From a virus, in the IMG/VR virus record IMGVR_UViG_3300031857_000091, positions 19,431 through 83,430 of that record: a stretch of DNA of 64,000 bases; one strand, 5' to 3'. Position 1 is the first letter of the stretch, and each line of letters begins with the position of its first letter. Below, piece by piece: positions 61,671 through 61,800 of the stretch. The translations under genes were made by a program, and so were the position numbers. The notes under the pieces are model-generated. The model was not told where the DNA came from and made no database searches. It saw only the letters and a list, made by a program, of their open reading frames with translations.

Positions 61671-61800
61671 AATAACCAAATCTTCAAGCAAGAAAACTTC
61701 TAATCTTGTTTGGGGATTTTTGTGTGATAGTATAAACAAATAAATCACCGCGAACTGAAGTAGTGTCGAGCTACTCCGTCGCACTCTGGTGATAACCCCA
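61671..61800 (+). repeat. 130-bp direct repeat (terminator + promoter + leader RNA), copy 1; copy 2 at 63581-63710
   Basis: About 4 mismatches between the copies. Confidence 0.9.
61744..61793 (+). ncRNA. Structured 5' leader RNA (type A)
   Basis: ATCACC/GGTGAT, GCGA/TCGC and GTAG/CTAC nested stems. Confidence 0.65.

Follow-up and report, generated by a model that had tools for sequence, protein, structure and literature searches.

A recurrent three-stem leader hairpin before antirepressor-like genes of a freshwater cyanophage, with a candidate facing antisense RNA

The DNA considered here is the last 64 kb (the window, taken at its full length) of a single 83,430-base-pair (bp) virus record, IMG/VR entry IMGVR_UViG_3300031857_000091. 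Its subject is a three-stem RNA hairpin of ~50 bases which recurs in the window, each copy sharing its strand with the gene downstream, and these genes encode proteins of antirepressor-like or KilA-N type. The G+C content of the window is 36.6% and the octamer GCGATCGC occurs 32 times within it; this octamer, HIP1, points to a cyanobacterial host. Parts of the contig recur in freshwater-metagenome contigs from several studies, the material for this cross-metagenome comparison being DNA contigs. The source is a temperate-type freshwater cyanophage and the contig is not T4-like.

The core of the hairpin, CCGCGAA-N5/6-GTAG-loop-CTAC-N-TCGC, is present exactly five times in the window, where none would be expected, and has no copy in the remaining 19.4 kb of the contig. 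Written as CGCGAA-N3-7-GTAG-N3-12-CTAC, it is matched at 61749 and 63659 on the plus strand and at 50087, 42123 and 27887 on the minus strand (n=5), and in none of 100 dinucleotide shuffles. These are the five sites at which a sequence-only reading of the same DNA had reported a recurrent nested-stem motif, naming each copy by its 5′ or its 3′ end, and the recurrence is thus borne out. As read from the copies, the outer stem P1 (AUCACC/GGUGAU) is stacked directly on P2 (GCGA/UCGC). On the 5′ side a purine-rich internal loop of 5 to 6 nucleotides (nt) lies between P2 and P3, which has the form (A/G)GUAG/CUAC(U/C) with a loop of 6 to 7 nt, whilst the 3′ side has 3 to 6 nt between P3 and P2 and a bulge of 5 to 6 nt between P2 and P1. 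Minimum free energy (MFE) folding returns P1-P2-P3 for all intact copies, at -14.4 to -22.5 kcal/mol (z -2.0 to -4.4). A covariance model, R1, built from 10 variants, recovers all known copies at 57 to 84 bits and the truncated copy D at 36 bits. The copies and the related structure F are as follows.

61744..61793, plus strand: copy A, three-stem hairpin P1-P2-P3, found by pattern, fold and covariance model (83.8 bits).
Within copy A, plus strand: stems P1 61744-61749/61788-61793, P2 61750-61753/61779-61782 and P3 61759-61763/61771-61775.
63654..63703, plus strand: copy B, three-stem hairpin with the stems of copy A shifted by +1910, found by pattern and covariance model (81.1 bits).
50042..50092, minus strand: copy C, three-stem hairpin with P3 loop CTTGCAA, found by pattern, fold and covariance model (75.4 bits).
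42078..42128, minus strand: copy E, three-stem hairpin with P1 UGCGC/GCGCA and P3 GGUAG/CUACC, found by pattern, fold and covariance model (60.3 bits).
27853..27907, minus strand: copy D, an extended -10 box TGtTACTAT and a truncated motif running from the 5′ strand of P1 to the 3′ strand of P2 (covariance model 35.8 bits).
40382..40473, minus strand: copy F, a different long hairpin (40473-40419, z -2.4), followed by a segment from ACCCC to GAGG (40418-40397) and by codons 1-3 (40390-40382), the complement of which reads TGATACCAT.

The motif of copy D (27892-27853, minus strand) is without the 3′ strand of P1 and is joined to the 3′ remnant of a gene. Copy F had been put forward as a divergent copy at 40419 (minus strand); it goes unseen by R1 and has in common with the motif only an outer stem, the ACCCC and its gene family, so that this assignment does not stand. 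The motif ends at least 31 nt before the ATG, and in copy E it lies 87 nt from the start codon. The ACCCC said often to follow the motif does so in the other intact copies and is missing in copy E.

The genes that follow are of few kinds.

61825..62580, plus strand: gene A, 251 amino acids, with a shared C-terminal domain ending IPVCDR; matches phrog_2657 ("transcriptional regulator") at 6.7e-16.
63734..64000, plus strand: gene B, of the MVSHPRAE family, cut by the end of the window.
49758..50012, minus strand: gene C, 84 amino acids, a truncated relative of gene A.
41236..41991, minus strand: KilA-N gene after copy E; matches PF04383 at 1.1e-16.

Genes of the 251-amino-acid type follow copies A, C and D, those of the MVS(H/Y)PRAE type follow B and F, and a KilA-N gene follows E. 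The first two types have one common C-terminal domain, with the IPVCDR end, and this domain also sits behind KilA-N domains in Nodularia phages. The products are best called modular antirepressor/KilA/Bro-like, putatively DNA-binding, proteins. The view that the motif precedes genes of differing families is correct for the KilA-N and antirepressor-like types, although the "two other families" that had been distinguished share a C-terminal domain. Codon 13 of the KilA-N gene behind copy E is an in-frame TAG (41955-41953, minus strand), where the related locus L113 has CAA; either the gene of the window is defective or translation restarts at the ATG at 41919, in which case the first part of the KilA-N domain is lost. 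Scans of viral contigs with the gene A protein returned nothing and with gene F a single fragment, while the KilA-N protein returned loci which have the terminator and the extended -10 box (see below) and no motif. The protein P0012 has no relatives in contigs of one genome per prokaryotic species.

Directly upstream of the motif lies a promoter-like block. An extended -10 box, TGnTAnnAT, stands 5 to 10 nt 5′ of all five copies, much as had been reported. Each of these boxes in turn directly follows a hairpin with runs of A and of T.

61678..61721: terminator hairpin and T run of copy A, abutting the sense -10 box; ends the upstream unit and is the proposed terminator of the antisense RNA (read by eye from the sequence; folds on the antisense strand too).
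61725..61733, plus strand: sense extended -10 box of copy A, TGaTAGTAT.
63588..63631: candidate two-way terminator hairpin of copy B, as read; folds both ways.
63635..63643, plus strand: sense extended -10 box of copy B, TGaTAGTAT.
50110..50144: candidate two-way terminator hairpin of copy C, AAAGCAC with GTGCTTT, as read; folds both ways.
50100..50108, minus strand: sense extended -10 box of copy C, TGcTATACT.
42136..42144, minus strand: sense extended -10 box of copy E, TGcTAAGAT.

The boxes (TGaTAGTAT, TGcTATACT, TGtTACTAT and TGcTAAGAT) keep the consensus bases and differ at the others, as would be expected of working extended -10 promoters, and they have no -35 box. Their spacing would place P1 at about +1 to +4 of the predicted transcript. 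The upstream hairpins fold in both directions and are flanked by U-rich sequence on the antisense side, with a clear U run in locus L107 and copy C and a modest one in A and B; in these folds the hairpin next to the sense -10 box looks like a two-way terminator. A simple terminator scanner left the upstream hairpins uncalled, because their loops exceed 8 nt.

Conservation is concentrated in the stems. When eight A-type variants are aligned, 29 of the 30 columns in stems show no change, as against 4 of the 23 outside them (Fisher 1.3e-9), which argues that the stem structure is under selection. DNA contigs from four further metagenomes, which are largely the same variants and so not independent, depart from copy A in three places only, namely the bulge, the P3 loop and the spacer 5′ of P1. 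Identical stems are joined to three non-homologous upstream hairpins and to differing downstream genes. Covariation of P1 had also been claimed. Copy E and L113 do carry a compensatory exchange, with P1 as UGCGC/GCGCA and a G-C closing pair in P3, yet in the model-fitted alignment only three pairs are changed on both sides; the covariation amounts to one evolutionary event in one alternative lineage and is suggestive only, being thinner than claimed and not statistically strong. The P3 loop of copy C, CTTGCAA, is the reverse complement of TTGCAAG in L107 and L126, and the same relation holds between TTAGCG of copy E and CGCTAA of L132 or, allowing for one change, CACTAA of L113. Loop orientation would thus not be what is read. 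The segments concerned (50061-50077 against L107/L126 and 42097-42112 against L113/L132) are small DNA inversions bounded by the arms of the P3 stem, and inversions of this kind between stem arms are known for hairpin loops of plastid genomes.

The hairpin is real and represents an uncatalogued RNA family. A comparison of the whole window with Rfam at gathering scores gave no match, and with E values up to 10 the surroundings of copy A and 61300-61700 gave only noise (S774, RAGATH-19, mir-186 and rli56); the claim that the element is uncatalogued is therefore sustained. Strict pattern scans found only L107 and L113, the latter of E type, among viral contigs, and seven related pieces in one group of lake metagenomes; loci L035, L117, L118 and L125 were set aside as chance pattern matches. 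A loose pattern gave 116 matches over viral contigs, mostly chance. The pattern has no occurrence in contigs of one genome per prokaryotic species, a blastn search with the module against plasmids and phages returned nothing, and R1 found no new copies in the window, the collected loci or two virus records. The pattern scans and R1 thus confine the sequence family to one freshwater cyanophage lineage. A search of the literature on KilA-N RNA motifs found nothing relevant. In Nodularia phages 2AV2 and kac65v151, which are identical at this place and so provide one example, a hairpin follows a -10-like box before a KilA-N gene, which is gp011 in the cultured phage vB_NpeS-2AV2. Its P1 (ACCAGC/GCUGGU) is stacked on P2 (ACAAC/GUUGU), followed by a 6-nt internal loop and by P3 (ACGGG/CCCGU) with a 7-nt loop, and there is a 3′ bulge of 8 nt. 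The topology of P1, P2, bulge and P3 is that of the cyanophage motif, every stem sequence being different, and the Nodularia leader is by this modelled fold a possible distant structural relative; R1 misses it, as it does other distant leaders.

The segment between the motif and the Shine-Dalgarno (SD) box is strand-specific in its folding. The ACCCC is able to pair with the SD box. Its CCCC is the partner of GGAG as well as of GAGG, and the C-A mismatch which this leaves in the mRNA becomes a G-U pair on the opposite strand. In all 11 distinct copies, copy F included, the segment from ACCCC to the SD box folds better on the antisense strand (-5.2 to -9.5 kcal/mol) than on the sense strand (-1.8 to -2.8 kcal/mol), as compared with a strand difference of 0.02 +/- 1.44 kcal/mol for random 23-mers of the contig. 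Covariation (AA/UU, AU/AU and UA/UA) links the dinucleotide which follows CCCC to that which precedes the SD box.

61794..61816, minus strand: copy A, AACCCC to GGAGCU; antisense 7-bp hairpin in which anti-SD CUCC pairs with GGGGU, put forward as the hairpin at the 5′ end of the antisense RNA (-6.8 antisense against -2.1 sense kcal/mol).
63704..63727, minus strand: copy B, antisense-specific hairpin, ACCUCA with UGGGGU (-5.2 against -2.8 kcal/mol).
50020..50041, plus strand: copy C, antisense-specific hairpin, CCUCUA with UAGGGG (-6.9 against -2.2 kcal/mol).
42039..42077, plus strand: copy E, antisense extended -10 box TGTTAAAAT (42039-42047), then an antisense-only hairpin (42055-42077).

The copy E hairpin that follows TGTTAAAAT has 9 bp with three G-U pairs (-10.2 antisense against -2.3 sense kcal/mol), and both it and the box are kept in L113. 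In the main hairpin of L140, too, a sense A-C mismatch is a G-U pair on the other strand.

Promoter-like boxes on the opposite strand are found at the starts of the genes themselves. Of 29 distinct start regions, 16, from ~10 independent lineages, have an antisense TGnTAnnnT between -10 and +50 relative to the start codon; shuffling the start regions gives a mean of 2.9 and a maximum of 9, and ~7% of the other open reading frames of the same loci have such a box. In B-type genes, codons 1-3 (ATG GTA TCA, or ATG ATA TCA in L107) form in reverse the extended -10 box TGATACCAT or TGATATCAT. Codons 2 and 3 (GTA or ATA, then TCA) are invariant in eight distinct B-type genes, and later codons vary synonymously. 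In distant homologues TGTTAGCAT, TGTTATAAT, TGTTAAGCT, TGGTAACGT, TGCTATTAT and TGATAGAAT stand inside the first few codons. Copies A and C carry TTGATT-17-TAGCAT and TTGATT-17-TAACAT on the antisense strand, the -10 box being formed by the ATG and an NTA codon.

61825..61853, minus strand: antisense promoter boxes of copy A, TAGCAT (read on the strand opposite ATG CTA, 61825-61830) and, 17 nt further upstream, TTGATT (61848-61853).
63734..63742, minus strand: copy B antisense extended -10 box TGATACCAT, from codons 1-3 ATG GTA TCA.
49984..50012, plus strand: copy C antisense boxes TTGATT-17-TAACAT, of which TAACAT overlaps codons 1-2.

A sense-strand TGTTAAAAT is also seen in the B-type genes, formed by codons 11-14 (I/T-V-K-I), at 63765-63773 (plus strand) in the window and at the equivalent position in L107 and L120. 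It is a promoter-like box internal to the gene or else arises from the conservation of the peptide, and counsels caution with promoter counts taken from sequence alone.

The block of terminator, promoter and leader has been joined to differing genes. In contigs from other lakes whole cassettes are skipped, by a joint from 62578 to 63576 in three runs and from 61662 to 63576 in one, and loose contig ends link the copy A leader to a B-type gene; some sides of these joints are shorter than 30 nt and the joints are supportive only. Remnants are seen at 27853-27907 and at 61343-61385 (plus strand), the latter a solitary terminator hairpin, CCAAGCAAG...CTTGTTTGG, with no promoter or motif behind it. 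Just 5′ of cassette A, at 61600-61657 (plus strand), is the 3′ remnant of an A-type gene (...IPVCDR*). The solitary terminator and the gene remnant look like traces of cassette loss or exchange. Between cassettes A and B a gene matching phrog_5931 (62667-63563) is preceded, at 62581-62666 (plus strand), by a hairpin CACGCTAAA...TTTAGCGTG fused to TGgTATAGT and a short C/A-rich leader, with no three-stem motif; the joint from 62578 to 63576 leaves this unit absent from contigs of three other metagenomes. Terminator and promoter without the motif are found in L146 and L148 as well.

A model which we favour, if only by a modest degree, is that each cassette pairs a leader bearing a 5′ hairpin with a facing antisense RNA, in the manner of sar and ant of phage P22. 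A cassette would begin with the terminator hairpin and the extended -10 promoter; the three-stem hairpin, starting at about +1 to +4, would come next, and then a C/A-rich linker beginning ACCCC, the SD box and the antirepressor/KilA-N/Bro-like gene. A second promoter, of the opposite strand and formed by the start codon with its neighbouring codons or, in copy E, lying just downstream of the motif, would fire back through the leader, the two facing promoters being ~80-100 bp apart. The predicted antisense RNA, ~135-145 nt in length, would start in the spacer between SD box and ATG and be fully complementary to the leader. It would consist, in order, of an anti-SD 5′ hairpin, a mirror image of the three stems, the complement of the sense promoter and the shared two-way terminator. 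RNAs so predicted fold as hairpin, hairpin and terminator (z -2.2 to -5.2), and if they start ~7 nt after the box they would cover the ribosome-binding site (RBS) in copies A, B, C and F. The gene would be kept silent by pairing of this RNA with the leader, for which the matching loops are the probable starting point, and by head-on transcription, until the balance of the promoters shifts; the hairpin at the 5′ end of the mRNA would probably also shield that end. Frozen stems with free loops fit an antisense pair, because the loops start the contact and are automatically complementary. The motif, its placement, the conservation of its stems, the promoter boxes, the strand-specific folds and the swapping of cassettes are all present in the sequence, and from it we infer that both RNAs are made and that they repress.

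Several observations weigh against an antisense RNA. In the terminator hairpins of A and B the wobble pair (G-U) belongs to the sense strand, A and C being mismatched at that position of the antisense strand, and the antisense U run there is modest. The antisense boxes of copies A and C are of -35/-10 type only (score 8 of 12), without the TG extension. The antisense box of copy E lies between the motif and the RBS, so that its RNA would miss the RBS. Seven TGnTAnnnT boxes occur on the sense strand of the same start windows, mostly in one conserved codon string, and peptide conservation alone can thus create boxes. The P1-P3 stems are all Watson-Crick and are uninformative as to which strand matters, and the C-A mismatch at the SD box of the mRNA could itself have been selected to weaken occlusion of the SD. 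Moreover the lineages are few and related, and the promoter and G-U counts are not fully independent.

An alternative explanation, which we consider possible though rather unlikely, is that the leader acts alone: a 5′ stem-loop would stabilize the mRNA against 5′-end-dependent decay or bind a phage or host protein for coordinate control, and the antisense boxes would be by-products of AT-rich conserved N-terminal codons. The hairpin of every copy lies ~0-4 nt from the expected transcript start, and the 87 nt between motif and start codon in copy E suggest a position tied to the promoter and not to the RBS. Homologues in distant cyanophages have unrelated hairpins in the same place, followed by C/A-rich linkers, and the conserved codons do also yield TGnTAnnnT on the sense strand. 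What the leader alone leaves unexplained is the ACCCC opposite GGAG and GAGG with good pairing only on the antisense strand (11 of 11), the antisense-only hairpin of E type with its three wobble pairs, and the enrichment of antisense boxes over ~10 lineages. The sequence-only reading had made no mention of the antisense boxes in the first codons, the strand-specific G-U hairpins or the two-way terminator, and it is these that point to a facing RNA of sar type over a leader acting alone.

It is improbable that the element acts as DNA, the nested palindrome being the operator of a phage or host repressor or an aba-like self-immunity site of the adjacent KilA-N-type protein. The stem sequences CCGCGAA, GTAG/CTAC and TCGC are conserved beyond what pairing needs, the motif overlaps the transcription start, AGTAG-loop-CTACT adjoins -10 boxes in L132 and L133, and the 5′ half, CGAAC-N4-GTAG, resembles a cyanobacterial LexA box. 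The spacers between half-sites vary, however (5-6, 6-7, 3-6 and 5-6 nt), and lack symmetry about the dyad, an arrangement incompatible with a rigid DNA-binding dimer; a LexA- or CI-type palindromic operator, with its fixed symmetric half-site spacing, was rejected on the same ground, since spacers differ both between copies and between arms. A compensatory exchange of P1 within one genome, a motif orientation which is always that of the gene and adjacent helices made strand-specific by G-U pairs likewise speak against an element acting as DNA. A cognate DNA element is indeed known from the 5′ end of BstA-type KilA-N genes (PMC8585504), but aba is protein-specific, spans the start codon and has direct repeats, whereas here one motif serves three kinds of N-terminal domain.

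Cassette exchange raises the quite improbable alternative, compatible with the other readings, that the block of terminator, promoter and hairpin is kept as a homology patch for swaps of accessory genes, in the manner of the elements called PeSLs, and that the hairpin has no regulatory role. One leader with differing genes, joints that remove whole cassettes and the remnants described above are as this would predict, and PeSLs are composite terminator/promoter sequences which mediate such indels (PMC4122927). Even conservation would be expected of a homology patch, however, and here the loops vary while the stems are frozen; the upstream terminators are, moreover, non-homologous between subtypes.

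The analogy to c4 and CI RNA first drawn for the motif, which would make it an immunity RNA cut from the leader (by RNase P, for example, with ACC(C) as a CCA-like tail) and acting in trans on antirepressor RBS regions, is very improbable indeed: its position between promoter and antirepressor-type gene and its coaxial P1-P2 stack followed by A-CCC do recall c4, but the motif forms duplexes with its own translation start region no better than shuffled sequences do (z -0.8 to +1.45), its loops differ or invert between copies with no matching change downstream, and Rfam C4 is not matched. The earlier interpretation was thus half right, in that a structured, promoter-proximal element acting at the RNA level before KilA-N and antirepressor-like genes is upheld by its recurrence, placement and stem conservation, with c4 as the wrong model for it. 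Other candidates were set aside in turn: sequestration of the SD by the motif (no complementarity to the start region); cores of hammerhead or other ribozymes and riboswitches (the loops contain no conserved bases); an NtcA box, GTA-N8-TAC (spacing fits copy E only); imitation of the 16S 3′ end by AUCACC (a sequence which copy E does not keep); antitermination of put or nut type (each cassette is ended by its own terminator); a substrate of Cas6/Cascade or target of the nuclease-free Cascade of the phage (no repeats, no match to a CRISPR direct repeat and no known guide); and a conserved small open reading frame on the antisense RNA, which was considered and dropped.

Other structured elements lie near the cassettes or resemble them. 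At 61433-61524 (plus strand) a cloverleaf-like fold (MFE -37.6 kcal/mol, z -3.5) with a closing stem and three arms, one of them like the T arm of a tRNA (GAGG-UUGAAU-CCUC), comes after an extended -10 box of consensus sequence, TGcTATAAT (61433-61441). Neither ARAGORN nor Rfam makes a call on this fold; it may represent a degenerate tRNA or else a small RNA of tRNA-like shape. A further element that recurs next to promoters is seen at 8645 and 5855 (both minus strand) and at position 12994 of the contig (plus strand), where TGCTAAA(T/A)T precedes two hairpins, the second of which is CCCCUGGGUG...CACCGCGAGGGG; the octamer CACCGCGA is common to these and the three-stem motif. In L107, at 3165-3215 (plus strand), a palindrome with 10-bp arms, ATTAGTAGTA..TACTACTAAT, including AGTAG/CTACT, lies between divergent genes, just 5′ of a phrog_503 gene.

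Antirepressor, KilA-N and Bro-type proteins decide between the silence and the waking of temperate phages, and some are defence proteins. If the model of leader and facing RNA is true, viruses of bloom-forming freshwater cyanobacteria possess a defined RNA switch, made of two facing promoters, a three-stem hairpin and an anti-SD hairpin; RNA databases gain a new family, and there is a worked example of one regulatory block which allows accessory genes to be swapped. It is attractive, albeit tentative, to consider further that such cassettes are portable 'locked genes' and a general device of cyanophages. The variable loops of the one conserved three-stem scaffold would serve as address codes by which the antisense RNA of each cassette silences its own mRNA only, the scaffold would also be a homology patch for the acquisition of new DNA-binding genes, regulation and recombination being combined in one module, and relatives of different sequence would stand before KilA-N and antirepressor genes across cyanobacterial viruses.

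A number of parallels can be drawn with known systems. The c4 RNA of phages P1 and P7 and the CI RNA of P4 are processed RNAs with loops complementary to sites at the downstream RBS. As here, a structured RNA lies between a promoter and an antirepressor operon; the cyanophage motif differs in having no such RBS-complementary loops and no Rfam match. In IS10 the antisense promoter for RNA-OUT lies inside the 5′ end of the coding sequence, as is proposed here, and a stem-loop RNA covers the 5′ end, SD box and start codon of the mRNA, RNA-IN. The gene there is a transposase gene, however, the overlap is only ~36 nt, and there is neither a shared terminator nor a set of multiple cassettes.

The aba element of BstA is a 63-bp element which acts as DNA, spans the start codon, has terminal direct repeats and is protein-specific (PMC8585504). 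Both it and the motif are short conserved elements at the 5′ end of prophage KilA-N-type genes, but the motif lies upstream, is an inverted repeat and is common to different proteins, with three types of N-terminal domain. PeSLs of T4-type phages are small composite terminator-promoter sequences which are repeated in the genome, flank accessory genes and coincide with the breakpoints where closely related phages differ by an indel or a gene replacement (PMC4122927). The cyanophage elements resemble them in joining a stem-loop terminator directly to a promoter, in being repeated in the genome and in lying at breakpoints of indels and gene replacements. PeSLs, by contrast, combine -35/-10 early promoters with a simple stem-loop, where the present cassettes have an extended -10 box, a three-stem leader hairpin and a candidate facing antisense promoter, and the PeSL phages are T4-type, while the present phage is a cyanophage with partition and Cascade genes and no T4-like myovirus.

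The closest parallel in organization is sar, from the immI region of Salmonella phage P22, a small RNA which represses the translation of Ant by base pairing (PMC13397905, PMC2629481). Both systems have an antirepressor-type gene and a small RNA, here predicted, which comes from a facing promoter and is complementary to leader and RBS. There is no sequence relation between them, Rfam sar being matched on neither strand here, and no adjacent repressor genes of mnt/arc type are recognized. The predicted RNA is about twice as long as sar, crosses the sense promoter and would end at the terminator of the upstream unit, and its putative -10 box is made up by the start codon together with codons 2-3. 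There are, furthermore, five cassettes per genome, with differing genes behind one leader. The principle of controlling an antirepressor by a cis-antisense RNA has been known since P22; here it would appear in the form of swappable cassettes.

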